Of a DNA stretch of 64,000 nt, positions 283 through 17,392 are shown in pieces (position 1 is the first letter of the stretch; each line of letters begins with the position of its first letter). Origin of the DNA: an uncultured Chloroflexia bacterium. Lineage in GTDB: Bacteria > Chloroflexota > Limnocylindria > Limnocylindrales > CSP1-4. The DNA lies in assembly GCA_963748625.1 (NCBI GenBank), contig CAVVJT010000010.1, positions 1,088,001 to 1,152,000 of the forward strand. The letters run 5' to 3'. The notes under the pieces are model-generated. The model was not told where the DNA came from. It did not search any database and saw only the letters and a program-made list of their open reading frames with translations. The translations under genes were made by a program, and so were the position numbers.

Positions 283-687
283 ATGAGTGAACGGGAGGGT
301 CGATTGGCTGGCACGGTCCTGATCGTGGACGACGAGCAGCACATCCGGCTGCTGATCGAGCAGACGCTCGAGGATCTGCTCGACGAGGGCGTCGAGCTCT
401 ACACCGCGTCCGACGGCGAGGAGGCGCTTGCGGCCATCGAGGCGCAGCGCCCGGACCTCGTGTTCCTCGACGTCATGATGCCCAAGCGCAACGGCATCGA
501 GGTCTGTCGGGCCGTTCGCGAGGAGCTCGGCCTCGGCTCCGACGCCGTGCACATCGTGCTGCTCACGGCGAAGGGCCAGGCCACCGATCGCGAGGCCGGC
601 CTCGCCGCCGGCGCCAACCGCTACCTGACCAAGCCCTTCGACCCCGACGAGCTGCTGGCGCTCGCGCGCGAGGTCTTGGGCGCATGA
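283..687 (+). CDS. Single-domain response regulator (receiver)
   Basis: LIVDDE, phospho-acceptor FLDVMMP, LLTAKG and TKPFD motifs; no output domain. Confidence 0.93.
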   Translation: MSEREGRLAGTVLIVDDEQHIRLLIEQTLEDLLDEGVELYTASDGEEALAAIEAQRPDLVFLDVMMPKRNGIEVCRAVREELGLGSDAVHIVLLTAKGQATDREAGLAAGANRYLTKPFDPDELLALAREVLGA

Positions 688-1490
688 GCGAGCTCGGCAG
701 GCTCATCGTCCGCCACCGGCACGTCGGCCCGATGGTGTCCGCGCTGCTGGCCGGCGTCGATGCTGCGATCACGATCCGCGACGCGGACGGCGAGGCGATC
801 ATCGAGCGCGGCGCGCCCGACGGCTCCCACGCCGGTGACGGCACCGCGGCCGGCGGGCGCCACGACATCACGGTTGATGGCGAGGTCCTCGGCTGGGTCG
901 AGGGCGGCCGCCCGGCCCGCGGGGTTGCGGCGGTCCTCGCCTACGCGGCCGCGCGCGAGCGGGACAAGCGCTCGCTGGCCAACGAGGCGCTCGAGCGCTA
1001 CCGCGAGCTGTCCCTGATCTACGACCTGGCGGCGGTGATCGGCGGTCACGACGACCTTGAGCCGATCGTGGAGACCGCCGTGACCGAGCTGTCACGTCTC
1101 CCCCATGGCGCCCGGGGCTTCCTGCTCCTGGCCGATGGTGACGCACTCCGGCCGGCGCCGGGCGGGGATGGCGAGGGCGGTCCGCTGGTGGCGGCCACGG
1201 TCGGCGTGGGAATCGTGGGTGCGGTGGTCGCGTCCGGCGTGTCCGAGCTGCTCGAAGACGCGGGTGCGGACCCTCGGGCGACCGACGACGAGCGCGCCGG
1301 CGGCTCGCTGGTGGCCGTGCCGCTGCGGGCCGGCGACCGGACGATCGGCGTGCTGGGCGCCACGGCGACCGGCGGCGTGTTCCGGGCGGCCGACCTCAAG
1401 GTGGTGACGGCGATCGCCGCGCTGGCGGGTCCGGCCATCGGGCGGGCCCTGGGCATCGGGCAGGCATCGGCCGACGGAGGCGAGCACTGA
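684..1490 (+). CDS. GAF-domain protein
   Basis: ATGA overlap with the receiver gene; LANEALERYRELSLIYD coiled segment; GAF-like GIVGAV...VAVPLRAGDRTIGVL...F..ADL. Confidence 0.75.
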   Translation: MSELGRLIVRHRHVGPMVSALLAGVDAAITIRDADGEAIIERGAPDGSHAGDGTAAGGRHDITVDGEVLGWVEGGRPARGVAAVLAYAAARERDKRSLANEALERYRELSLIYDLAAVIGGHDDLEPIVETAVTELSRLPHGARGFLLLADGDALRPAPGGDGEGGPLVAATVGVGIVGAVVASGVSELLEDAGADPRATDDERAGGSLVAVPLRAGDRTIGVLGATATGGVFRAADLKVVTAIAALAGPAIGRALGIGQASADGGEH

Positions 1491-2992
1491 GCTTCCGGTC
1501 CGGCTTCTCCGCGCCCGTTCCGCGGGGCGACCGGGGCGGCACCGATCCCGCGGAGCAGGTGGAGCTCGCCCTGAAGCGCCGCCTGGCGGAGCTGGCGGGC
1601 ATCAACGCGATCGGCATCGTGCTGGCCAGCATCCGGGACCCGGACCGCCTGGTCGAGCGGGGCCTGGAGGAGATCGTCGGGCGCCTCGGTTTCACACACG
1701 GCCTGATGGCCCTGGTGGACCCGGAGGACGACTCGATCGGCGACTGCCGGCTGGCAGGTCCGCCGCCCGCGCCGGGCACACCCGCCCCGGGCACGCTCGA
1801 TCCCGCCGCATATGTACGCGCCCTGCGCGTGGACGGCGACGACCCGGTGGCGGCGCTCGCCCGGCTCGCCCGCGCCGAAGGCCCGCTCCACTTCCGCGAC
1901 GCGGACCGCGATCCCGACGAGGGCAACCGCCGCCTTGCGGCCATCCTGGGATCGACCGGGTTCGTGGGCACGCCGCTGGCCAACCAGGGCCGGGTGGTCG
2001 GCGTCCTGGTCGTGAACGACACGCGTGACCGGCGCCCGCTCGAACCCGCTGACGGTCCCCTGCTCTACACGGTCGGCTCGCTGTTCGCGGGCGCGCTCGG
2101 CTCAGCCCGCCTCCAGGCGGAGCTCGAGGCCCAGAACCGGGCCCTGGAGGCTCGCGTGCAGGAGCGGACCAAGGACCTGCTCGACGCGATGGTGGAAGCC
2201 CGCGAGGCACGCGAGGCGGCCGAGGACGCGAACGAGGCCAAGAGCCGGTTCTTGGCCAACGTCTCGCACGAGCTGCGCACGCCGCTGACGTCGGTGGTCG
2301 GCTTCGCCAAGCTCAACCGCAAGCGGCTCGACGAGGTCGTCTTCCCCGAAGTCCCCCGCGACAACCCCAAGGTGGACCGCGCGATCCGCCAGGTGGGCGA
2401 CAACTTGGGGATCATCGTGGCCGAGGGGGAGCGGCTGACCTCGCTGATCAACGACCTGCTCGACCTGGCCAAGATCGAGTCTGGCCGCTTCGAGTTCCAC
2501 ATGGCACCCGTCCACCTCGAGGACATCGTGGCACGCGGGGTCGCCGCAACGGCGTCGCTGTTCGAGGCGGTGGACCTGCCCCTGCGCACGGACATCGAGC
2601 CTGGCCTGCCCGCCATCACCGGCGACCTGGACCGCCTCGTGCAGGTCGTGATCAACCTGCTGTCGAACGCGGTCAAGTTCACGTCGGCAGGCGGCGTGGA
2701 CGTGATCGTCCGCCACGACGGGGAGTCGCTGCGGGTGGAGGTGCGCGACACCGGCAAGGGCATCCCCGCGACCGACCTCGAGCAGATCTTCGAGCCCTTC
2801 CGCCAGGCCTCCGACACGCTGCCCGACGGGCCCAAGGGGACGGGGCTGGGCCTGCCCATCTCGCGCCAGATCGTGCACGCGCACGGCGGGCGGATGGGCG
2901 TGGTCTCCAGGGTCGGCACAGGTTCGACCTTCTGGTTCACCGTGCCGGGCGGCGGTCCCGTGCCGGCGCCCGGGGGATCGGTCGGCGGCTGA
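1487..2992 (+). CDS. GAF sensor histidine kinase (HisKA + HATPase_c); probable CTG start at 1487
   Basis: H-box FLANVSHELRTPL, N-box NLLSNAVKF, G1 DTGKGI, G2 GTGLGL. Frame is open upstream of 1559 to a CTG overlapping the previous TGA, with GGAGG at 1476-1480. Confidence 0.92.
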   Translation: MSFRSGFSAPVPRGDRGGTDPAEQVELALKRRLAELAGINAIGIVLASIRDPDRLVERGLEEIVGRLGFTHGLMALVDPEDDSIGDCRLAGPPPAPGTPAPGTLDPAAYVRALRVDGDDPVAALARLARAEGPLHFRDADRDPDEGNRRLAAILGSTGFVGTPLANQGRVVGVLVVNDTRDRRPLEPADGPLLYTVGSLFAGALGSARLQAELEAQNRALEARVQERTKDLLDAMVEAREAREAAEDANEAKSRFLANVSHELRTPLTSVVGFAKLNRKRLDEVVFPEVPRDNPKVDRAIRQVGDNLGIIVAEGERLTSLINDLLDLAKIESGRFEFHMAPVHLEDIVARGVAATASLFEAVDLPLRTDIEPGLPAITGDLDRLVQVVINLLSNAVKFTSAGGVDVIVRHDGESLRVEVRDTGKGIPATDLEQIFEPFRQASDTLPDGPKGTGLGLPISRQIVHAHGGRMGVVSRVGTGSTFWFTVPGGGPVPAPGGSVGG

Positions 2993-3166
2993 CGGCCGGA
3001 CGCACGCCGGGGCCGGCCGATCCGCGCGGCTCCGGGGTCCCGAAAGTCAGGGGGTACCAGTACCTGTGGGCCATGCCGACTGCCCGATCGCGCAGGATAC
3101 GGTCAAGGTCCTCTTCCGGGGGAAGGAGGCAGGATCAACCCGTCAGGCCATGAAGGAAGAACCCGA

Positions 3167-3262
3167 ATGGACAAGGTCAAGTACGCAGCCCAGCGCGCCA
3201 TGTTCCTCCTCGGATCCCTCGCGGCGTTCGCCATCGTGATCGATGGCGCGAAGCGCTGGTAG
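3167..3262 (+). CDS. Small 31-aa hydrophobic peptide (DGAKRW family, copy 1)
   Basis: MDKVKYAAQRAMFLLGSLAAFAIVIDGAKRW*. Purine-rich SD (gaaggaag) upstream, GC3-rich codons, terminator hairpin downstream, paralog at 10915-11022. Confidence 0.75.
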   Translation: MDKVKYAAQRAMFLLGSLAAFAIVIDGAKRW

Positions 3263-3311
3263 AGGTCCCGCCACACGCAAACCGCCTCCAACGTGCCCAC
3301 CGCCGAGGCCT

Positions 3312-3343
3312 GAGCCGCCGGGAACCTACCCCGGCGGCTCTTC
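3312..3343 (+). terminator. Intrinsic terminator-like hairpin after small peptide gene
   Basis: 11-bp stem gagccgccggg / cccggcggctc, 7-nt loop, followed by ttcgatt. Confidence 0.6.
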
Positions 3344-3432
3344 GATTCCCGGGTGGCCGGGCCGTGGCCCGAGGCGGGCCTGCTGAGCCACCCGCGCAGC
3401 ACGCGCCCGGCACTCCCGCTACCGTCTGTGGC

Positions 3433-4407
3433 GTGACCACGCCCGACCTCCAGCCGATACCGGAGCGCCCCGCGAAGACGCCGCGGCCCACCGACCCCGA
3501 GGCCATCTTCGTCGTCGGTGTCAGCCGCAGCGGCACCACCCTGATGAGCCGGGTCCTGGACCATCATCCGCGGATCGCCATCGCGCCCGAGAACCACTAC
3601 ATGCGCCACCTCCTGCCGTGGATGGGCGTGCGCCACGATGTGCGCCGGCTGGGCGACCTGCGCGATGACGCCGTCGTGGGCCGCCTGGCCACCATGCTCT
3701 CCGACGGCAGCCTCCAGAGCGGGACATGGGCCCGCGAGAACAGCCCGTTCTTCCGCTGGCTGCCCCGGAACTACACGCGCGAGCAGCTCGAGACCCGTCT
3801 GCTCGAAGGCGAGCGCACCGAGCGCGGGGTGTTCACAACGCTGCTGCGTGCCTACGCCGAGGCGCGGGGCAAGACCATCATCGGCGAGAAGACACCGGCC
3901 CACGTCGCCTGCGTGGACGAGCTGCTCGACTGGTATCCCGGCGGCAGGGTCATCCACATCATCCGCGACCCACGGGGCATCTACGTGTCCGAGCTGCGAC
4001 GCCGATCGGAGCACGCAGTGACGCTCCCATACCGGGTCATCGTCCATGTGCCACCGCTGATGCGCTGGTTCATCGTGCTCGAGGTGGCCTGGGCCTGGCG
4101 CCAGGCGGTCGGCCGCCACCGCCAGCTCGCCCGGGCCTTCCCCGACGCGTACACGCTCGTGCGCTTCGAGGATCTCGTGACCGATCCGGACACGACGATC
4201 CCGGCACTCTGCGCGCGGCTGGGCGTGGAGACCCGCCAGCGCATGCTGCGCCAGAAGGTCGTATCCAAGGGCGAGAACCTGGGCGACTCCGGCTTCGATG
4301 CCGACGCGGCGGTCCGCTGGCGCCGAACGATCGGCCTGCGCCCCAAGCGCGTGCTCCAACTGCTCCTGCGGGGCGGCCTCGAGGAGATGGGCTACCCGAA
4401 GCGCTAG
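3433..4407 (+). CDS. PAPS-dependent sulfotransferase family protein
   Basis: 5'-PSB loop FVVGVSRSGTT, GEKTP, 3'-PB IIRDPR, VRFEDLV. Leaderless-type GTG 7 nt after TACCGT. Confidence 0.88.
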   Translation: MTTPDLQPIPERPAKTPRPTDPEAIFVVGVSRSGTTLMSRVLDHHPRIAIAPENHYMRHLLPWMGVRHDVRRLGDLRDDAVVGRLATMLSDGSLQSGTWARENSPFFRWLPRNYTREQLETRLLEGERTERGVFTTLLRAYAEARGKTIIGEKTPAHVACVDELLDWYPGGRVIHIIRDPRGIYVSELRRRSEHAVTLPYRVIVHVPPLMRWFIVLEVAWAWRQAVGRHRQLARAFPDAYTLVRFEDLVTDPDTTIPALCARLGVETRQRMLRQKVVSKGENLGDSGFDADAAVRWRRTIGLRPKRVLQLLLRGGLEEMGYPKR

Positions 4408-4477
4408 CGTCTCGTGCCGCCAATGGCTGGCGGATACCGCTCCGTGCCCGTGCCGCTGATCGGAAGCGGCATCACGG

Positions 4478-4653
4478 GGCGTCGCCCACGACGGCTGCTG
4501 CCGTATGCGCACACGGCGCGCACACGGAGCGGTGACGTCGCGGGATGTGCGCCCGGTGCGCCGACCGTGCGCTCCGGCAGGGTCCCGACGGCACGACCTG
4601 CGCACCAGCCGCGCATCGAGCGCTGCCGCCGCACCGTGTGGCCGTCCGGCGCG
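4478..4653. repeat. Dispersed ~175-bp intergenic repeat, copy 1
   Basis: Closely matches 63827-64000; shared cores include cacacggagcggtgacgtcgc and gtgcgctccggcagggtcccgacggc.cgacctgcgcaccagccgcgcatcgagcgct. Confidence 0.85.
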
Positions 4654-4656
4654 CAG

Positions 4657-4746
4657 CCGGACGGAGACAGGACCCGGACGGAGACAGGACCCGGACGGAG
4701 ACAGGACCCGGACGGAGACAGGACCCGGACGGAGACAGGACCCGGA
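4657..4746. repeat. Tandem repeat, 17-bp unit x5
   Basis: ccggacggagacaggac repeated 5 times plus a partial copy; no spacers. Confidence 0.95.
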
Positions 4747-4800
4747 GCGGCGGTCCGCGCGCCGCCAGCGACCAGCGGATCGGGACACTCGGGGGTGCGG

Positions 4801-5781
4801 TCAGTCCCGCCCGCGCTCCCGCCACAGGTTGCGCAGGATGAACGACACGTTCGCCGGGCGCTCCGCGAGGCGGCGCATGAAGTACGGGTACCACTGCTGC
4901 CCGAAGGGCACGTAGGTGCGCACCCGGTAGCCGGCCCCCACCAGCTGCTCCTGGATGTCGCGGCGGATGCCGAACAGCATCTGGAACTCGAAGCTGTCGC
5001 GGGCGATGCCCTCGGCCTTGGCGACCTGGACCGCGCGCTGGATGAGCTTCACGTCGTGGGTGGCGAGACCCGGGTAGTTGCCCTCGCGCATGAGCTTGAG
5101 CATCAGGCGCTCGTAGGCCGCGTCCACGTCGGCCTTGTCCTGGTAGGCGGCGGACGCCGGCTCCTTGTAGGCGCCCTTGCACAGGCGAACCCGGCCGCGC
5201 TCGGCGATGACCTGCTCGACATCGACCTCGGCGCGCTTGATGGCTGCCTGGAGCACGATGCCCACGTCGCCCTTGTCGAGATCGCCCGCGCCTGCAGGCC
5301 GGATGGCCCGCCACACCTCGAGCGTGTCATCGATGGTCGTGTGGTCCTCCATGTCGATGCGGAGGAAGCCGTCGAGCTCGACCACCTTTGCGACGATCCC
5401 GCCGATCGTCTCCTTCGCCAGGTCCTTGGAGATCCCGAGGCCCATCTGTGTGGGCTTGAGCGAGACGTTCCGGTCGAGCCCCACCGCCGCAAGGGCGTCG
5501 AGCACGATCGGATAGCGGGCTGCCGCGGCGCGCGCATCCTCCTCGTGGCTCACCGACTCGCCCAGGATGTCGACCGTGGTGCCCATCCCCTGCTCGTGCA
5601 GGGCCGTGATGGCGGGCAGCGCCTCCTCGAAGCTCTCGCCGGAGATGAACCGCCGGACCATCGGGCGTGTCACCGGCACCCTGGTCGCGAGATCGCCCAA
5701 GGACTTGCGATGGGACAGCGTGAGGAGCGTGGAGCGCATCGCGCGCTCGGCGACATCGCTCACGGCGGAGTTGACGGGCAT
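4801..5781 (-). CDS. putB: Monofunctional proline dehydrogenase
   Basis: RRFISGE, SLKPTQMG, RIDMED, RLCKGAY, ATHD, EFQMLFGIR, YVPFG, YFMRRLAERPAN. Confidence 0.92.
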   Translation of the reverse strand: MPVNSAVSDVAERAMRSTLLTLSHRKSLGDLATRVPVTRPMVRRFISGESFEEALPAITALHEQGMGTTVDILGESVSHEEDARAAAARYPIVLDALAAVGLDRNVSLKPTQMGLGISKDLAKETIGGIVAKVVELDGFLRIDMEDHTTIDDTLEVWRAIRPAGAGDLDKGDVGIVLQAAIKRAEVDVEQVIAERGRVRLCKGAYKEPASAAYQDKADVDAAYERLMLKLMREGNYPGLATHDVKLIQRAVQVAKAEGIARDSFEFQMLFGIRRDIQEQLVGAGYRVRTYVPFGQQWYPYFMRRLAERPANVSFILRNLWRERGRD

Positions 5782-5799
5782 GGGTGCCTCAGTGGCTGG

Positions 5800-6478
5800 T
5801 CAGGGCTTGGTGGCGGGCGGCGCGCCATAGGTGGCGTCCAGCTCGGCGATGAGCGGCTTCTCGTCACGCCGGGTGAGGAACGAGAACATGAGGTGGCCGG
5901 CGATCGCCAGCGTCCAGACAAGCTGGACCGGCAGCAGGAGCGTCGAGATGGGCGCCGGTCCGGCCTGGCTCGCGCCGACGAGGTTGATCGTCGCCCAGCA
6001 CCCCGGCCAGCCACAGGAGGGCAGCGCCCGCGGCGTAGCCGAAGGTCATCGCCGACATCATGCCCAGCGGGTTGCCCATGGAGATCCCGGCGACCTTGGG
6101 GGCATCGGGCGGGTAGAAGTAGGCGGCCTCGAGGCGGTGGGCGACCAGCACGTCGCGGCCCAGGCGCTGGTTGATCGCGCGCTCGAGGTACTCGGCGTGG
6201 CGCCGCGCGAAGACCGTGTAGAAGAACAGGTATCCGGTCTCCAGGAACGCGAACGGCACCAGGAACGGCACCGCGATCACCACCGACGGGAAGATCCCGG
6301 AGCCGCCGATCACGAGCAGGGCCAGCACGATCAGCAGGTAGGTCCTGATCCGCTCGAAGAAGCGCTCGGAATACCCGAACAGCATGCCGCGCATGCGCGC
6401 GAGCTGGTCCTCGAGGATGCGGAGGTCGTCGGTGGTGGGCGCCGCGGGACGGCCGGCGCCGGCCGGAATCGTGTCCAT
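5800..6478 (-). CDS. Integral membrane protein of unknown function (apparent +1 frameshift near 5994-5996)
   Basis: Hydrophobic N-terminal frame switches after LAGVL into ATINLVGA...LVWTLAIAGHLMFSFLTRRDEKPLIAELDATYGAPPATKP* (stop 5800-5802). Span is 3n+1. Confidence 0.65.
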
Positions 6479-6609
6479 CGGCGCGAGGATAGCGCCCGCT
6501 GGTCGGCGCGGATGGGTGCACGGTCCCCTAGTTGGCGGGTCCGTCGGTCACGTCCGCGACGGGACTCCCGGCAGTCCACGTGCCAGGCGCTGCCGTCGGG
6601 ACAGTCGCG

Positions 6610-7479
6610 TCAGTCCCCGGCCGCGTCCTTGGCGGGGGCCTTCACGAGCTCTGCATCCATCTGGTCGCCCAGCTCGACGGTGCGCCGGTAGGCTGCCCAG
6701 ACGGCCTCGGAGAGGACGGTGCGCAAGCGGCCCGACTCCAGCTCATGAAGGGCGGCGGCGCTCGTGCCGGCCGGTGACGTCACCGCGTTGCGCAGGACCG
6801 CCGGGTGGTCGCCCGAGTGCTTCGCAAAGCTGGTCGAACCCTCCAGCGTCTCGATCACGAGGTCGTGGGCGATGTGGCGCGGGAAGCCCAGGTGGACGGC
6901 CGCGTCGATCAGGGCCTCCATCACGAGGAAGACGTACGCGGGGCCGGTGCCGGACACGGCCGTGGCCATCGCGACGAACTTCTCGTCGTCCACCTCGAGC
7001 TCCGCGCCGAGCACCCCGAGGAATGCCTTCGCCTGGGCGCGCTGCTCGGCGGTGCAGGCCGGGGTTGCGTACCACACGGTCATGCCCTTGCCAATGCGGG
7101 CGGGCGTGTTGGGCATCGCCCGCACGACCTGCGGGTGGTCCAGCGTGGCCACCAGGGCGTTGGTGGTGGGACCCGCAAGCACGGACAGGACGACCTGGCC
7201 CGCGCGCAGCTTCGGCCCGATCTCCTTGCCGACCTTCGCGAGCATCTGCGGCTTGACCGCGAGCAGGATGACGTCGGCGCCCTCGATCGCGTCGGTGTTC
7301 GACGCGACCACGCGGATGCCGAGCCCGGCCTCGAGCGCGGCGCGGCGCTCTGCGCGTGGATGGCTCGCGACCACCTGGTCCGGGGTGACAAGGCCGCTGC
7401 GCAGCAGGCCCGCGAGCATGGCCTCGGCCATGACGCCGGATCCGACGCAGGCGATGGAGCGACTGGCGAGGGGTGACAT
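6610..7479 (-). CDS. proC: Pyrroline-5-carboxylate reductase
   Basis: GSGVMA dinucleotide motif, LAVKPQ, RAMPNTP, TAVSGTGPAY, VTSPAGTS. Confidence 0.95.
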   Translation of the reverse strand: MSPLASRSIACVGSGVMAEAMLAGLLRSGLVTPDQVVASHPRAERRAALEAGLGIRVVASNTDAIEGADVILLAVKPQMLAKVGKEIGPKLRAGQVVLSVLAGPTTNALVATLDHPQVVRAMPNTPARIGKGMTVWYATPACTAEQRAQAKAFLGVLGAELEVDDEKFVAMATAVSGTGPAYVFLVMEALIDAAVHLGFPRHIAHDLVIETLEGSTSFAKHSGDHPAVLRNAVTSPAGTSAAALHELESGRLRTVLSEAVWAAYRRTVELGDQMDAELVKAPAKDAAGD

Positions 7480-7510
7480 GGCCCCGGAGGATACACCCGG
7501 CGAGGCGTGC

Positions 7511-7600
7511 CTCAGCGTGCGCGGCCCAGCGTGCGAGGGTCTCGGCGTGCGCGGCCCAGCGTGCGCGGCCCAGCGTGCGACGGTCTCAGCGTGCGACGGC
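7511..7600. repeat. Degenerate tandem repeat (cagcgtgcg-core, 14-16 bp units)
   Basis: About 6 imperfect copies of (c)agcgtgcgcggcc / agcgtgcga(c/g)ggtct. Confidence 0.7.
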
Positions 7601-8440
7601 CGACGCGACGATGAAGAAGCGGCCGGTGGTGCCCAACGTGACCTCCGCGAAGCCGCCCCGCACCATGGCCACCTCCAGGATCTCCGGAGGGTGGTAGCTC
7701 CAGGTCGTGCCCGCAGGCGGTCCGCCCGCGATATCGGCGCGCAGGTCGATGACTGCGAGGCGTCCGCCGTCAGCGAGCCGGTCACGGAGGAGCTGGGTGG
7801 CGGTGTCGAGGCCGGCGCCCCGCACGCGGCCCAGCAGGAATGCCGCCACGAGGGCATTGGCGCGGGGCGCGTCGGGCGCCGTTCGCGCCCAAGGGTCGCG
7901 CGGGTGGAGGTGGGCCCGGAGCCGATGGGCGAGCAGCCGGTCGCGGGCGATGTCCAGGGCGGCGGCGTCGGGATCGGATGCGTGCAGCTCGCCCTTCTCG
8001 GCGAGCAGCGGCGAGAAGAAGCCGACCCCTGCGGCAGGCTCTGCGATCACGCCCCCGAGCGGCTGGGCATCGAGCCAGCGGGTGACCATGTCGAGCTCGG
8101 CGTGCCAGGCCGCATCGTGGATGGCGCCCTTCTCGAACGACCCGCGGCGGAGGAACCAGTCGTCGGGGAAGGCGGATGCCGTCCCCGCAGCCGGTTGCCG
8201 GGGCGGGCGGGGTGTCGTCGGCGGGGGCAGCTGCGCCGAGGCGGGCGCCGCCTCGTGGACGGCCCGGCCGACGCCACGGGCATCGAGCCCGGCCCGCAGG
8301 CGGCCACGCAGGAAGGGGTTCGTGCCCGCCAGACCCAGGCACTCCGGGCACAGGTGCGCCCAGCCCTCGAGATCGTCGGGCCCGCGGGTCCGCCAGTCCG
8401 TGCCGCACCAGAGGCAGGCGAATGTCGCCCGGTAGGCCAC
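7586..8440 (-). CDS. Class I SAM-dependent methyltransferase with N-terminal zinc ribbon
   Basis: CLWC...CPEC at the N-terminus; SAM motif I-like IAEPAAGVGFF; LADGGRLAVID. GTG start 1 nt after the upstream stop. Confidence 0.65.
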   Translation of the reverse strand: MAYRATFACLWCGTDWRTRGPDDLEGWAHLCPECLGLAGTNPFLRGRLRAGLDARGVGRAVHEAAPASAQLPPPTTPRPPRQPAAGTASAFPDDWFLRRGSFEKGAIHDAAWHAELDMVTRWLDAQPLGGVIAEPAAGVGFFSPLLAEKGELHASDPDAAALDIARDRLLAHRLRAHLHPRDPWARTAPDAPRANALVAAFLLGRVRGAGLDTATQLLRDRLADGGRLAVIDLRADIAGGPPAGTTWSYHPPEILEVAMVRGGFAEVTLGTTGRFFIVASAVAR

Positions 8441-8441
8441 C

Positions 8442-9284
8442 CTAGGGCACCCGTGCCCAGGACGCGGGCGGCGCCATGCCGTCGCAGGCCACCGGATCCA
8501 CGATCTCCGCCAGGGTCTCGATCCCATCGACGATGCGCGGACCGAGGCGGCTGAACAGCTCCGCATCGACGGCGAACACGCGTCCCTCCCGCACCGCTCG
8601 CAGCGCGTGCCAGCCCGCGGGCTTCGGGGTCACCGACCATAGCGAGACCGCCTCATCGAGCGTGAGGTCCTCCGGCAACAGCACGATCGCGTCCGGGTCC
8701 ATCTCGGCGACCGACGCCCAAGCGACGCGGGCCGACGCGGCACCTTCGCGTCCCAGGAGATCCCAGCCGCCGGCGAGCCGGACCTGGTCCGGGATCCATC
8801 GCCCCACCGACCGCGGGGGATCAAGGCCTTCGAGGAGGGCGAGGCGCGGCGGCGGAAAGCCGCCGTCGCGTCGGGCGATGACGATCTCCTCGACAGCCTT
8901 GAGCCGCTCGCGCAGCTCCTCGACGAGGTCCAGCGCGTCGTCCTCGGCCTCCGTCATCGCGCCGACCGTCGAGATGGCGTTGAGCACACCCTCGACCGAC
9001 GTCGGCGCGAGCTCGAGGATCTCGGCGTCCAGCCCGGCTTCGTCGAGCAGCGCGCGCAGGGACCGCGGATCCGGGCAGGAATCCTCGGCCGCGCCAGTGA
9101 TCACCAGGTCGGGATCGGCCTCGCGCAGGCGGTCCGAGGCGATGCCGTGGGGGCCGGTGACACGCGGGACATCGAGCGCATCGGGCGGGAAGTCGCACCG
9201 GTGGGACACGCCGACCATCTCGTCGCCCAGCCCGAGGGCGAACACGATCTCGGTGGCAGCAGGGAAGAGCGAGACGATACGCAC
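8442..9284 (-). CDS. BtuF/cobalamin-siderophore-type (helical-backbone) substrate-binding protein, no signal peptide
   Basis: MRIVSLFPAATEIVFALG...VGVSHRCDFP, PDLVIT, AVREGRVFAVD...SRLGPRIVDG. Confidence 0.82.
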   Translation of the reverse strand: MRIVSLFPAATEIVFALGLGDEMVGVSHRCDFPPDALDVPRVTGPHGIASDRLREADPDLVITGAAEDSCPDPRSLRALLDEAGLDAEILELAPTSVEGVLNAISTVGAMTEAEDDALDLVEELRERLKAVEEIVIARRDGGFPPPRLALLEGLDPPRSVGRWIPDQVRLAGGWDLLGREGAASARVAWASVAEMDPDAIVLLPEDLTLDEAVSLWSVTPKPAGWHALRAVREGRVFAVDAELFSRLGPRIVDGIETLAEIVDPVACDGMAPPASWARVP

Positions 9285-9409
9285 CCCGCCAGTCTACGGG
9301 TCGTGCCGCCGAGCACCGGTCGCACCGGGAATCGAAACGGCCCCGCTGGCGCGGGGCCGCACGGAGCGTGTTGGGGGCGGGTCACCCGCCCCGGGACGCG
9401 AGGCCTTGC

Positions 9410-9697
9410 TCAGGCCGGCTTGAGAACCTCGAGGGCGGCGCGGGCCCCTGCCTTGTCGCCGAACCACTGCGCGTTGATCGGCGAGTAGCCCGCCCACTCG
9501 GCCGGGACGCTCTCCTCGGGGAAGATGGCGTTCACCGGGCACTCGGGCTCGCAAGCGCCGCAGTCGATGCACTCATTGGGATCGATGTAGAGCATCCGGT
9601 CCGTGCCCTCGTCCTGGTGGATGCAGTCCACCGGACACACGGACACGCACGCCGTGTCCATCACATCGACGCAAGGCTCGGCGATGACGTACGTCAT
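9410..9697 (-). CDS. fdxA: Ferredoxin (FdxA-type dicluster)
   Basis: MTYVIAEPC..DTACVSVCPVDCI and CIDCGACEPECPV. Confidence 0.9.
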   Translation of the reverse strand: MTYVIAEPCVDVMDTACVSVCPVDCIHQDEGTDRMLYIDPNECIDCGACEPECPVNAIFPEESVPAEWAGYSPINAQWFGDKAGARAALEVLKPA

Positions 9698-9880
9698 GTT
9701 GGGAAGCTCTCCTGAGTGTGGTTGCGCGTCCTCGGGCGCACGGGCGACCCATGCACCACGGGGAACCTTACCACCGGCCGGGCACGCTCCGGTGGACCGA
9801 AGGGCACGTCAAGCGGTGGCGGATGGTCCCGTCCCACAGGCGGACCGGACGGTGGCTCGCCCAAGGTGCGCGTGTGCGGC

Positions 9881-9964
9881 GTGGTCCGTGCGCTCCGGTC
9901 CGTGCGTGGTCGTCCGTGGCGTGGTCGTCCGTGCGCTCCGGTCCATGCGTGGTGGTCCGTGCGC
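9881..9964. repeat. Degenerate direct repeats (gtccgtgcgctccggtcc.tgcgtggt)
   Basis: Two near-identical ~27-bp copies plus shorter gtggtcgtccgtg units in the intergenic region. Confidence 0.6.
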
Positions 9965-10193
9965 GGCGTGGCGCGTACATCCGCCCGCCGGGCGGGCACT
10001 GTGCGCGGAATCCTGCGCAGGCTGACCGCCCCGCGGCAGGAATGGGCCGTCCAGGGCCAGTTCATGCGACTCCTGCCCGGAACGCGGCAAGACTGCGCAG
10101 TTCTCTGCACGCAAGGCCCGCTGGGCGGGAGGCGGCGATGGCGCGCACTCCCGTTCGGGAGGCGACGGCTCCGACGGCGGAGCGACCGGGCCG

Positions 10194-10793
10194 TCAGGGC
10201 GTGATGGCGGACGCTGAAGGCGACGCAGACGCAGCGGGCTTGGGGATCGGGTTGCCGGCCTCGTCCACAAACCGGACCGGGACCACCATGCCCTTCGCCC
10301 AGTGACCCGGAATGTGGCACCCCACGAACCACCCCGTCGGATCCGACGCGGCATCCGCCGGAACCGTCCAGGTCACGTCGAGCAGCTCTCCGGAACCCGC
10401 GACCACCCGTACGCCGTCGAAACCCGTGGGGTCGGGCACGAAGGGCGTGGGTCCGGGCGGGGCGTCGATGGTCACGAGCTCCGCCTCCTCCCATGCGAGC
10501 TGGCTGTCCATGTCACCGAAGATCGCCTCGTGGATCACCAGGCCGCCGTTGATCACGTTGAGCTTGACCGTCTCGCCGGGAACCAGGTCCACCGTGAGGG
10601 GCACGTAGGCGTAGTCCCGCATGATCAGGTTGAGCTCGCGCGGGGCGCCGCTGGTCCCCGGCTCGATCGGCGGGGTCGGGGTGGCGCTGCCCGCACCGCA
10701 GCCGGCCACCACCAGGCCTGCGAGCACGACCAGGCCGGCAGGTCGCCAGGCGGTGGACCCGGGCAGGCGGCGGGGACGGGACACGATGTGCAT
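10194..10793 (-). CDS. Cupredoxin (blue copper) lipoprotein, auracyanin/plastocyanin-like
   Basis: Lipobox VVAGC; type-1 Cu ligands IHEA ... CHIPGHWAKGM. Confidence 0.85.
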   Translation of the reverse strand: MHIVSRPRRLPGSTAWRPAGLVVLAGLVVAGCGAGSATPTPPIEPGTSGAPRELNLIMRDYAYVPLTVDLVPGETVKLNVINGGLVIHEAIFGDMDSQLAWEEAELVTIDAPPGPTPFVPDPTGFDGVRVVAGSGELLDVTWTVPADAASDPTGWFVGCHIPGHWAKGMVVPVRFVDEAGNPIPKPAASASPSASAITP

Positions 10794-10914
10794 CGCCCAA
10801 TGATGCGGGAGGTGCGCGGATCAGGCCGGCGGCGACCCCTGCTCGTCAGGTGAGGTGGCCCTCAGCAGGGGTTGAGCGGCCACCGGCGCGCATGCGGGCG
10901 CCCGCGCCGCTCGT

Positions 10915-11022
10915 TCAGTGCGGCCATCGCTTCGCTCCGTCGACCACCACGGCCAGCGCCGGCAGGGCCAGCATCATCCAGGCTGCGGCCGCCCCGAGGG
11001 CGCGCCGGTACCTCGTGCGCAT
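10915..11022 (-). CDS. Small 35-aa hydrophobic peptide (DGAKRW family, copy 2)
   Basis: MRTRYRRALGAAAAWMMLALPALAVVVDGAKRWPH*. AAGGAG SD 8 nt before ATG; paralog at 3167-3262. Confidence 0.75.
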   Translation of the reverse strand: MRTRYRRALGAAAAWMMLALPALAVVVDGAKRWPH

Positions 11023-11121
11023 TCGTCCGTCTCCTTGTGCCCGCTCGCGCGGGCGATCCGCCCCACCCGATCCCTTCCATGTGCGCCCGGACCGGTCGTG
11101 GGGAGATGCAGCATGAGAGGG

Positions 11122-11143
11122 GCGGCTTATGCGCGGCTTATGC
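11122..11143. promoter_or_regulatory. Perfect 11-bp tandem direct repeat, candidate OmpR/PhoB-type operator
   Basis: gcggcttatgc-gcggcttatgc in the divergent intergenic region between the small peptide gene and the DksA-like gene. Confidence 0.5.
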
Positions 11144-11188
11144 AGCACACGCCGGTGCTGTGGACAGCGCCGGAGTACGATCCCGCCC

Positions 11189-11533
11189 ATGGACCAGCCG
11201 ACCCCTTCGCCCGATCCCCGGACCGCCCTCCTCGCCGAGCGGGAACACGTCCTGGCCGAGCTGGCCGAGAACGAGATCGAAGCGCCGGGCCAGATGACCT
11301 ACGGTTCGCAGGCCGCAGCCGCCTCCCACGTCTTCGAGCAGCAGCGCGACCTCGCGCTTCGCGACCACAACCGCGCCCACCTTGCCGACGTGGACGCAGC
11401 CCTCGCCCGGCTCGACGCCGGCACCTACGGCCGGTGCACCTCGTGCGGCAACGCGGTGGCACCCGAGCGCCTCGAGGCGCTGCCGTGGGCGGCCCTCTGC
11501 ATCGACTGCAAGAGCGCGAAGGGCCGCCGGTGA
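11189..11533 (+). CDS. TraR/DksA C4-type zinc finger protein
   Basis: AALARLDAGTYGRCTSCG...ERLEALPWAALCIDC. Leaderless-type start 7 nt after TACGAT. Confidence 0.9.
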   Translation: MDQPTPSPDPRTALLAEREHVLAELAENEIEAPGQMTYGSQAAAASHVFEQQRDLALRDHNRAHLADVDAALARLDAGTYGRCTSCGNAVAPERLEALPWAALCIDCKSAKGRR

Positions 11534-16536: not shown

Positions 16537-16615
16537 GCAGGCCGCCGGCGCAGGCACGGCAGAGGAGTGACCGCCGTCAGGGCACGTGGACGGCCGGATG
16601 GCCTATCCTCGGCCC

Positions 16616-17302
16616 GTGACCCGCGCCCACGCCGCCACTCTCGCGCGTCCCCACCTGGGCTCGCTCCGGTTCCTCGCCCTCGCGAGCCTCGGTGTCCTGG
16701 CCGCGCATGACGCGGTCTTCGTGGCCCAGTACGGCCTCGGGGCGGGCTACGACGCCGCGATGGCGCGGACCGCCCACGGCTACTGGCCGGCCTTCATCCT
16801 GCTCACGCTGCTCGTGGGTGCGGCGAGCGCGGTAACGGCCCTGCGCGCGATCACCCACCTTGCGCGGCTGGTGCGGGGGCTCCCTCCGGACAACCCCACC
16901 GTCGGAAGGCCTGCGTACTGGAGCGAGGTCCGCCATCTCTGGCCGCGGCTCTTCGCCGTGGTGGTCGTGGGCTTCCTCGTCCAGGAGAACATCGAGCACG
17001 TCACCAGCGGGAATGGCCTGCCCGGCCTCTGGGCGCTCTCCGCACCCGACTATCCGCTCGCCATCCCCGCCATCCTCGTGGTCACGGGCCTGCTTGCCGC
17101 CGCCGGCGCCTGGATCCAGTGGCGCCGCGAGGTCCTGATCGAGCGCTTGCGTGCCGCCCATGCCGCGGTCCTGCGCCAGCGCCACCACGCGGCCCGCGCC
17201 CCGCATGACCGGTGGGCCCTGCTCGCCGCGCTGCTCGTCCACCGCTGGACCCTCCTCCGTCGAGACGCCGAGCGGGCTCCACCGCTCACCGGCGCCGCCT
17301 GA
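16616..17302 (+). CDS. His-containing multi-TM protein with C-terminal RAPP motif (candidate arrest-peptide leader of copper chaperone operon)
   Basis: About 4 hydrophobic segments with AHD, AHGYW and QENIEH; ends ...RRDAERAPPLTGAA*. TATCCT-N6-GTG start. Confidence 0.7.
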   Translation: MTRAHAATLARPHLGSLRFLALASLGVLAAHDAVFVAQYGLGAGYDAAMARTAHGYWPAFILLTLLVGAASAVTALRAITHLARLVRGLPPDNPTVGRPAYWSEVRHLWPRLFAVVVVGFLVQENIEHVTSGNGLPGLWALSAPDYPLAIPAILVVTGLLAAAGAWIQWRREVLIERLRAAHAAVLRQRHHAARAPHDRWALLAALLVHRWTLLRRDAERAPPLTGAA

Positions 17303-17392
17303 GCCCACGGTCGCCCCATGGGGTCCGACCGTCTCCCTCGAGCGCACGTCCGGCATTCCGCCGCGTCGTACCGTCCACACCGGAGCAACCGC

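Follow-up and report, generated by a model that had tools for sequence, protein, structure and literature searches.

Two very small genes, here designated pep1 and pep2, are carried by the window analyzed in this study, a stretch of 64,000 nucleotides from contig CAVVJT010000010.1 of an uncultured Chloroflexia bacterium. Their products end in IVIDGAKRW and VVVDGAKRWPH, respectively, and both are real, conserved protein-coding genes of one family of micropeptides, which is unnamed. The strongest functional lead comes from sister genera, in which the gene lies behind a riboswitch for cyclic diguanosine monophosphate (c-di-GMP) and directly after a gene encoding the DUF5317 protein. On balance it is somewhat probable that the family consists of membrane-anchored micropeptides with the N-terminus inside and the C-terminus outside, whose tail would contact a membrane partner and which would serve as an output of c-di-GMP circuitry. 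The initial annotation of this stretch had presented the pair as candidate secreted signals; what it said of conserved coding genes, selection on the tail and an unnamed family has held, and what it said of secretion and signaling has found no support.

Two conserved genes of an unnamed micropeptide family

The host, a soil bacterium, has a genome of 4.63 Mb and 71% G+C in 10 contigs. A six-frame search of this genome for the tail motif, as the initial annotation had proposed, gave 8 matches to DG[AGS][KR][KR]W, and only those in pep1 and pep2 terminate short open reading frames (ORFs) bearing a Shine-Dalgarno (SD) site. Both ORFs translate as first described, and the good SD sites attributed to them are present (Table 1). 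A protein search detected homologues of pep1 in 21 of the 24 genus genomes examined, and a profile search detected them in all 17 genomes of a second draw. The orthologues are all 31-33 codons long and terminate at the Trp or one residue beyond it, and most of the 20 orthologous loci displayed have an AGGA- or GGGA-type motif at the same distance before the start. The ratio of nonsynonymous to synonymous substitution rates (dN/dS), computed in all six frames, is 0.39 in the annotated frame versus 0.76-2.7 in the other five for 19 distinct genus sequences of pep1, and 0.53 versus 1.2-1.6 for 20 sequences from other genera. In addition, the third codon position is the most variable in the pep1 alignment, and the Gly and Ala codons of the tail show synonymous variation. 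In profile searches pep1 is matched at E = 3e-16 and, with a second profile, at 8e-15; a homology search with a 44-aa read of its open frame returned one near-identical cluster only. The two genes had been called unannotated, which is correct for pep2, absent from public gene calls (NCBI, JGI, ENA), but not for pep1, because its exact sequence is already among them.

The family profile search suggested for these peptides was run with profile A2, built from 34 sequences and scored against 1.84 billion representative proteins at a cut-off of E ≤ 0.001. It recovered 144 clusters, 16 of them at E ≤ 1e-10, and the match nearly always reaches the C-terminus. A common signature emerges, in which a basic N-terminus and an uncharged core of about 15 residues precede the tail [E/D/Q][A/G/S][G/A][R/K/Q/H]-R-W, followed by 0-2 residues. 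Of the 144 representatives, 137 have R-W (H-W in one case) no more than 5 residues from the end. Among these 137, the residue immediately before the Trp is Arg in 136, the second before it is R, K, Q or H in all, and the third is G or A in 136; position -4 to the Trp is A, G or S in 131, position -6 is L, I or V in 121, and Arg occupies position -21 in 116. The median length of the uncharged core is 15 residues, and the segment on its N side carries a higher mean charge (+2.5) than that on its C side (+1.1, with the carboxylate uncounted). Both window peptides conform in tail, core and N-terminus, pep1 ending in DGAKRW with no further residue and pep2 in DGAKRW followed by PH. As an ORF of 30-35 aa matched by the profile end to end, pep1 also qualifies, and pep2 does so weakly. 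The A-x-A motif ahead of the tail, initially listed among the shared features, is not conserved, since the family as a whole has merely small residues there.

The statement that no named family could be recognized proved correct, with 0 Pfam or NCBIfam families matching either peptide at E ≤ 10. The ESM Atlas yielded unnamed clusters of 31-33 aa only, and ten clusters that were looked up are labeled 'hypothetical protein' or are nameless; at the level of search results, the tail strings led only to unrelated papers on antimicrobial peptides. The family occurs in 11 of 401 genomes sampled across the phylum, where it is confined to families f1 and f3 of one class, and in 54 of 121 genomes evenly sampled from f1, the family of the window genome (the f1 counts include one unpublished genome, G607). 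Its range is thus apparently one Chloroflexota class, Limnocylindria. No true fusions were found among the longer profile matches, which reach 198 aa: two of the preceding parts match the unrelated DinB_2 (weakly) and CBM_48, and the remaining ones have no Pfam match in that part, which fits over-extended starts.

For pep2, 14 other genus loci have a positional orthologue whose end is GAKRW or a near variant (SAKRW, SGKRW). A GGAGG-like site precedes a start located 28-33 codons from the Trp in 15 of 15 loci, namely the window, 13 genus loci and locus L030 of genus g4, in which the tail at the pep2 position is ARRWG. The paralogy of the two genes, as initially claimed, rests on the common tail, the architecture and the conserved positions, because the statistical link is weak: pep1 and pep2 match each other at E = 0.02 (18 bits), a profile built without pep2 does not recover it at E ≤ 0.001, and pep2 scores E = 2.6e-10 only against a profile that includes pep2 itself.

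Purifying selection is strongest on the tail (dN/dS 0.13-0.20). For N-region, helix and tail in that order, the values are 0.61, 0.33 and 0.20 in the pep1 sequences of the genus, 0.95, 0.56 and 0.13 in the 20 sequences of other genera, and about 1.0, 1.1 and 0.16 in pep2. The picture of a diverging leader joined to a fixed tail, drawn initially from the two copies, is therefore supported by dN/dS and is extreme in pep2, with the addition that the pep1 helix is constrained as well. Thirteen genomes have two copies; in 8 of them the residue at the variable tail position is identical in both copies, suggesting either a shared partner or gene conversion. In one such genome (G150; loci L111 and L112), both copies end in the rare LQAGQRWTH, and this shared ending suggests gene conversion or co-evolution with one partner.

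c-di-GMP riboswitches and DUF5317 in related genera

In relatives of the window genome, the micropeptide gene is repeatedly found in one setting. At least 24 of the 69 f1 peptide places, including one in genome G607, have DUF5317 (PF17248) as the immediate upstream neighbor on the same strand, with gaps of 190-526 nt counted from where the Pfam match ends; the true number may be higher, as 150 of 220 DUF5317 matches were examined. The adjacency was also seen by tblastn in 18 fetched loci, family f3 included. An Rfam search of 11 loci placed RF03167 or RF01051, scoring above the gathering cut-off, between the DUF5317 and peptide genes at 6 of them. The six aptamers found there were used to build a covariance model, R1, which was scanned over about 47 loci outside the genus (20 of them with only 150 nt of flank) as well as the window and 18 other genus loci. 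A c-di-GMP-I-type aptamer was identified in this same position at 13 loci, with scores of 77-103 bits, about 100-130 nt before the start codon of the peptide.

The window copies lack both parts of this module, having neither a 5' aptamer nor a DUF5317 gene directly upstream. With R1, no aptamer was detected next to the window peptides or those of the 18 other genus loci, and Rfam gave no match beside the window peptides (E ≤ 10) or in the 8.7 kb upstream of the window. The sole DUF5317 of the window genome is on another contig, C2, and no third RW-tailed copy was found beside it. Five of the riboswitch-bearing loci (L041, L051, L054, L055 and L058) are syntenic with pep1, sharing the same block with the pyrroline-5-carboxylate (P5C) reductase gene, and in L055 and L058 the peptide gene is convergent on proline dehydrogenase, as in the window. 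From this synteny, the ancestral unit appears to have been DinB - DUF5317 - riboswitch - peptide (- YetF), and the window genus appears to have lost both DUF5317 and the riboswitch at the pep1 locus.

DUF5317 itself has a wider distribution and was also matched in the Thermus and Thermotoga control genomes. Its profile has 0 PDB sequence matches at E ≤ 1, and no literature was found at the level of search results, either on DUF5317 or on riboswitch-driven micropeptides. Most f1 genomes have two DUF5317 genes, one short (about 180 aa) and the other in a frame of 650-800 codons that continues into MFS_3. At 16552-17310(-) of L030 in genome G098, DUF5317 and the micropeptide share one stop-free frame of 253 codons, which may be a product of chance at high G+C or a natural fusion.

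A second riboswitch-micropeptide system

Contig C2 of the window genome holds a second system of the same design as the RW-tailed micropeptide modules. Its c-di-GMP-II aptamer (RF01786) scores 65 bits against a gathering score of 53.5, and the order on the reverse strand (L071, 5821-11975) is a Trans_reg_C regulator, the riboswitch (9886-9970), two tiny ORFs, an HD-GYP protein with a MASE9 domain, and the DUF5317 gene, which continues in frame into an MFS_3 domain. The tiny ORFs have strong SD sites and matching tails; one encodes 10 aa ending in KGW, the other a basic-hydrophobic peptide of 29 aa ending in KGF, and the latter is conserved in 14 of 18 genus loci. The 29-aa peptide aligns with the RW-tailed family over 22 columns (hhalign probability 86%, E = 5e-6).

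Proposed role and alternative explanations

In the mechanism proposed here, the products of pep1 and pep2 would be micropeptides that cross the membrane once, with the basic N-terminus most probably in the cytoplasm, the 15-residue uncharged helix in the membrane, and the hexapeptide (D/E)-(G/A)-(A/G)-(K/R)-R-W exposed at the outer face of that membrane. The ancestral gene would have been located directly 3' of DUF5317, a multi-pass membrane protein, and switched by a c-di-GMP-I-type riboswitch, and it is this control and this position that suggest the family to be an output of c-di-GMP signaling. The peptide would be a small modulator that uses its tail to act on a partner within the membrane; candidates for this partner are DUF5317 or a membrane-bound c-di-GMP enzyme. 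In the window genus, pep1 would be driven from its own upstream region, with a protein operator (a 12-bp palindrome) in place of the RNA switch, and in about half of the genus genomes it would also stand behind an inserted operon of a response regulator, a GAF protein and a histidine kinase (RR-GAF-HK). The other copy, pep2, would head a two-ORF micro-unit with the overlapping ORF pep2b, upstream of a cupredoxin lipoprotein gene. The constraint on the helix and N-region of pep1 indicates that the whole peptide matters, beyond the tail.

Several observations weigh against this mechanism. With 15 residues, the core would make a short membrane anchor and is compatible with the h-region of a signal peptide, and the N-region and helix of pep2, with dN/dS of about 1.0-1.1, behave as a mere leader would. 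The window copies are tied to c-di-GMP by descent only, because neither a riboswitch nor an adjacent DUF5317 is present. DUF5317 does not need the peptide, since it occurs in 119 of the 121 f1 genomes and the peptide in 54. Moreover, the relation of the C2 peptide to the family is not firm, because short hydrophobic profiles can score by composition. A bolder extension, which is rather unlikely, would make the RW-tailed peptides and the related KGW/KGF pair of C2 an undescribed peptide layer of c-di-GMP signaling. In that scheme, the peptides would be riboswitch-gated, with a surface tail, tethered or clipped, acting as ligand or allosteric partner of DUF5317 and of c-di-GMP enzymes with membrane sensors (MASE9 HD-GYP, GGDEF-EAL), and the two genus copies would have been rewired from RNA to protein control through the palindromic operator and the GAF histidine-kinase operon.

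The idea closest to the initial annotation is that of a secreted-signal precursor, in which the N-terminal two thirds would be a Sec-type signal peptide, a short C-terminal peptide would be released by signal peptidase or another protease, and a conserved receptor would sense the product; release could occur after A-x-A, in the window copies only, or after (L/I/V)-(E/D)-(A/G), which would free [G/A]-x-R-W. Nothing yet indicates that the peptide is released, and this explanation is considered doubtful, if still a live rival. Substrates of signal peptidase I have a positive n-region, an h-region of 7-15 residues and small residues at -3/-1, and the composition of the RW peptides is compatible with this, with their basic n-region, 15-residue uncharged core and small or aliphatic residues at -4 and -6 to the Trp; the same features suit a short membrane anchor. 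The strongly constrained tail and the neutral leader of pep2 also favor a signal, as does the position of the gene right behind a candidate partner, DUF5317, in many genomes, since phr genes likewise follow rap genes. However, no conserved peptidase, C39/ABC (ATP-binding cassette) exporter, Rap/Rgg/TPR receptor or membrane kinase was found beside either copy when the neighbors in the window and in more than 30 related loci were tabulated with Pfam and NCBIfam, as had been advised. Some genomes have ABC genes in the interval from pep2 to the cupredoxin gene; these encode a binding-protein-dependent importer and are missing from the window. DUF5317 as a signal-peptidase-II-like protease is unsupported at the sequence level, hhalign against LspA profiles (21 genomes) giving a probability of 1%. 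The helix and N-region of pep1 are under purifying selection, 0-2 variable residues follow the Trp, and the tail is nearly constant across paralogues and genera, so that there are no pherotypes, whereas the tails of pheromone systems are diversified. Nor was an enzyme modifying ribosomally synthesized and post-translationally modified peptides (radical SAM, YcaO, lanthionine synthetase or P450 type) adjacent among the neighbors scanned, which are a two-component system, a sulfotransferase, proline dehydrogenase, P5C reductase, a binding protein, a ferredoxin, a cupredoxin and DksA.

It is also conceivable, at a far lower level of probability, that translation rather than the product matters and that the ORFs are leader or arrest peptides controlling downstream genes in cis, as TnaC and SpeFL do. 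The highly conserved C-terminal end of a small ORF, the location between a riboswitch and genes such as YetF/DUF421 in relatives, and the translational overlap of pep2 by pep2b would all be expected of such peptides; but pep1 of the genus has no downstream target, because a hairpin and the convergent proline dehydrogenase gene follow it, the cupredoxin gene that follows pep2 seems to be started from a leaderless signal of its own, the hydrophobic helix is conserved, and the residues after the Trp vary in number and kind, unlike in termination arrest. A force-sensing arrest peptide of the SecM/MifM kind was rejected, as a 32-residue chain is still within the ribosome tunnel at the stop codon. 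Equally improbable is a type I toxin-like peptide that damages membranes and is restrained by RNA: the peptides recall type I toxins in their size, single hydrophobic helix and charged ends, and the riboswitch exerts tight control over expression in relatives, but the synteny is stable across genera and two families, which is atypical of toxin loci, no Rfam antisense family was found at the loci scanned, and the specific, conserved tail argues for a specific partner. Finally, the notion that the ORFs are not genes at all, and owe their conservation to a DNA or RNA element or their existence to chance at 71% G+C, is close to refuted. Many long spurious frames do occur in high-GC genomes, but selection here is frame-specific, the tail Gly and Ala codons vary synonymously, start, SD site and length are conserved, 144 clusters are spread across metagenomes, and the peptide loci of the window have no Rfam match.

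Comparison with known systems

The closest functional parallels to a membrane-anchored modulator are MgrB and SafA, small single-pass regulators of membrane sensors in enterobacteria. The likeness lies in a size of about 30-65 residues, one helix, a gene located beside a signaling system or controlled by one, and a presumed intramembrane contact. There is no sequence relation, however, and the RW family has a fixed C-terminal x-R-W and is restricted to one Chloroflexota class; in relatives the link is to a c-di-GMP riboswitch and DUF5317, not to a two-component sensor that has a periplasmic domain. With Phr, SHP and ComS, the peptide-pheromone precursors of Firmicutes, the RW peptides share a short precursor, a basic N-terminus, a hydrophobic stretch, a functional C-terminal end and a gene that often follows that of the partner. 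They differ in that no Rap, Rgg or ComR receptor, dedicated exporter or Opp system is conserved near them, and in that the RW tail is invariant, not diversified. Among genes under c-di-GMP-I and -II riboswitches (RF01051, RF03167, RF01786), the members in sister genera fit through their aptamers and C2 through the RF01786 aptamer before its tiny ORFs, whereas pep1 and pep2 of the window are without one.

A conserved peptide of 32 residues would be a concrete candidate partner for DUF5317 and MASE9. Its placement differs by lineage, behind a c-di-GMP riboswitch, DUF5317 or a GAF kinase operon, and, if the proposed mechanism is true, it would illustrate that micropeptides can be outputs of riboswitches for second messengers. 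Genes of fewer than 35 codons in high-GC metagenome-assembled genomes can be recovered, and validated by conservation alone.

Genomic context of pep1 and pep2

Table 1. Positions of pep1, pep2 and associated features in the window
Feature	Position	Strand	Basis or remark
Receiver protein (283-687), GAF protein (684-1490) and GAF-HisKA-HATPase kinase (1559-2992)	283-2992	+	Pfam; upstream of pep1
Perfect 12-bp palindrome GGTACCAGTACC, probable protein operator	3053-3064		Genus alignment; about 100 nt upstream of pep1
TACGGT, conserved TA-N3-T block (TA[CG]G[GT]T), possible -10 element of pep1's own promoter	3098-3103	+	Alignment columns; putative function
SD-like AAGGA	3153-3157	+	9 nt 5' of pep1 ATG
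pep1 micropeptide ORF, 31 aa (stop included), tail IVIDGAKRW	3167-3262	+	Translation, orthologues, frame-specific dN/dS, profile match
Hairpin with 11-bp stem (GAGCCGCCGGG / CCCGGCGGCTC), probable terminator without U tract	3312-3340	+	3' of pep1
Cupredoxin-like lipoprotein gene	10194-10793	-	Downstream of pep2/pep2b; partial CopI match NF051440, E = 3e-9; lipobox LVVAGC, C-x4-H-x4-M
pep2b, third tiny ORF (21 aa here)	10862-10927	-	ATG inside pep2 Arg-Trp codons (cgATGg)
pep2 micropeptide ORF, 35 aa (stop included), tail VVVDGAKRWPH	10915-11022	-	Translation, positional orthologues, tail dN/dS
SD site AAGGAG	11031-11036	-	8 nt 5' of pep2 ATG

The 150 nt 5' of pep1 are conserved across the genus, whether or not the two-component operon is present. 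The palindrome within them (GGTAC-N2-GTACC) is retained as GGTAC[CT][AG]GTAC(C) in 21 of 21 aligned genus loci, again with or without that operon, and occurs once in the 4.63-Mb genome. No consensus RNA fold was obtained for this region (RNAalifold -2.9 kcal/mol, 0 covarying pairs), which is probably a protein operator with a promoter. Downstream hairpins had been noted for both genes, and that of pep1 stands, its region 3263-3350 folding with -35.8 kcal/mol (z = -3.25, 0 of 200 shuffles as stable). A stable fold is likewise obtained for the 115 nt 3' of pep2 (z = -2.7, 1 of 200), but an overlapping ORF is situated there and the stretch is not a simple terminator. Scans gave 0 U-tract terminators at the pep1 or pep2 site and 0 sigma-70 promoter sites.

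The location of pep1 behind an RR-GAF-HK operon, likewise noted initially, is true of the window and of no more than 9 of the 17 other genus loci. At 7 of the 8 operon-free loci a divergent HpcH/HpaI aldolase gene adjoins pep1 directly, and in the window genome the same gene immediately precedes the operon, which therefore looks inserted. The Pfam domains of the kinase are GAF (from residue 26), HisKA and HATPase only, with no membrane domain, so the protein is probably cytoplasmic.

In the genus, pep2 and pep1 flank a conserved block that contains, from pep2 to pep1, genes for the cupredoxin-like lipoprotein, a ferredoxin, a Peripla_BP_2 binding protein, a methyltransferase-like protein, P5C reductase, YetF (in some genomes) and proline dehydrogenase, with pep1 on the far side of the block and convergent with the last of these. 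The overlapping ORF pep2b ends in H[G/A]RRW-stop in relatives and in HARRW followed by five extra residues in the window; it is 16-21 codons long and in relatives often contains Cys/His. An overlapping ORF of the RRW type is present in 13 of 15 loci (the window and 12 of 13 other genus loci), is absent from L035, and is replaced by an unrelated ORF in L030 (g4). In 11 of 14 rows (the window and 13 other genus loci), Arg and Trp of pep2 are encoded by CGA-TGG, and it is the CGA, a rare Arg codon in this type of genome, that creates the ATG of pep2b. Being overlapped by a conserved ORF with an RRW ending, pep2 therefore forms with pep2b a coupled pair with matching tails. A conserved CCGCATCAT-N6-7-ATG before the cupredoxin gene suggests that this gene has a leaderless promoter and transcript of its own. 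The 11-bp tandem repeat reported upstream of pep2 was confirmed, with 2.0 copies at 11122-11143, where it overlaps the start of a DksA-like gene (11129-11533).

A Sulfotransfer_3 gene at 3364-4407(+) is inserted between pep1 and proline dehydrogenase in the window and is missing from 17 of 17 other genus loci. The segment 4801-9697(-) encodes, on one strand and conserved across genera, proline dehydrogenase, P5C reductase, the methyltransferase-like protein, a binding protein of the B12/heme type and an FdxA-like ferredoxin, and thus holds enzymes of proline synthesis and breakdown side by side.

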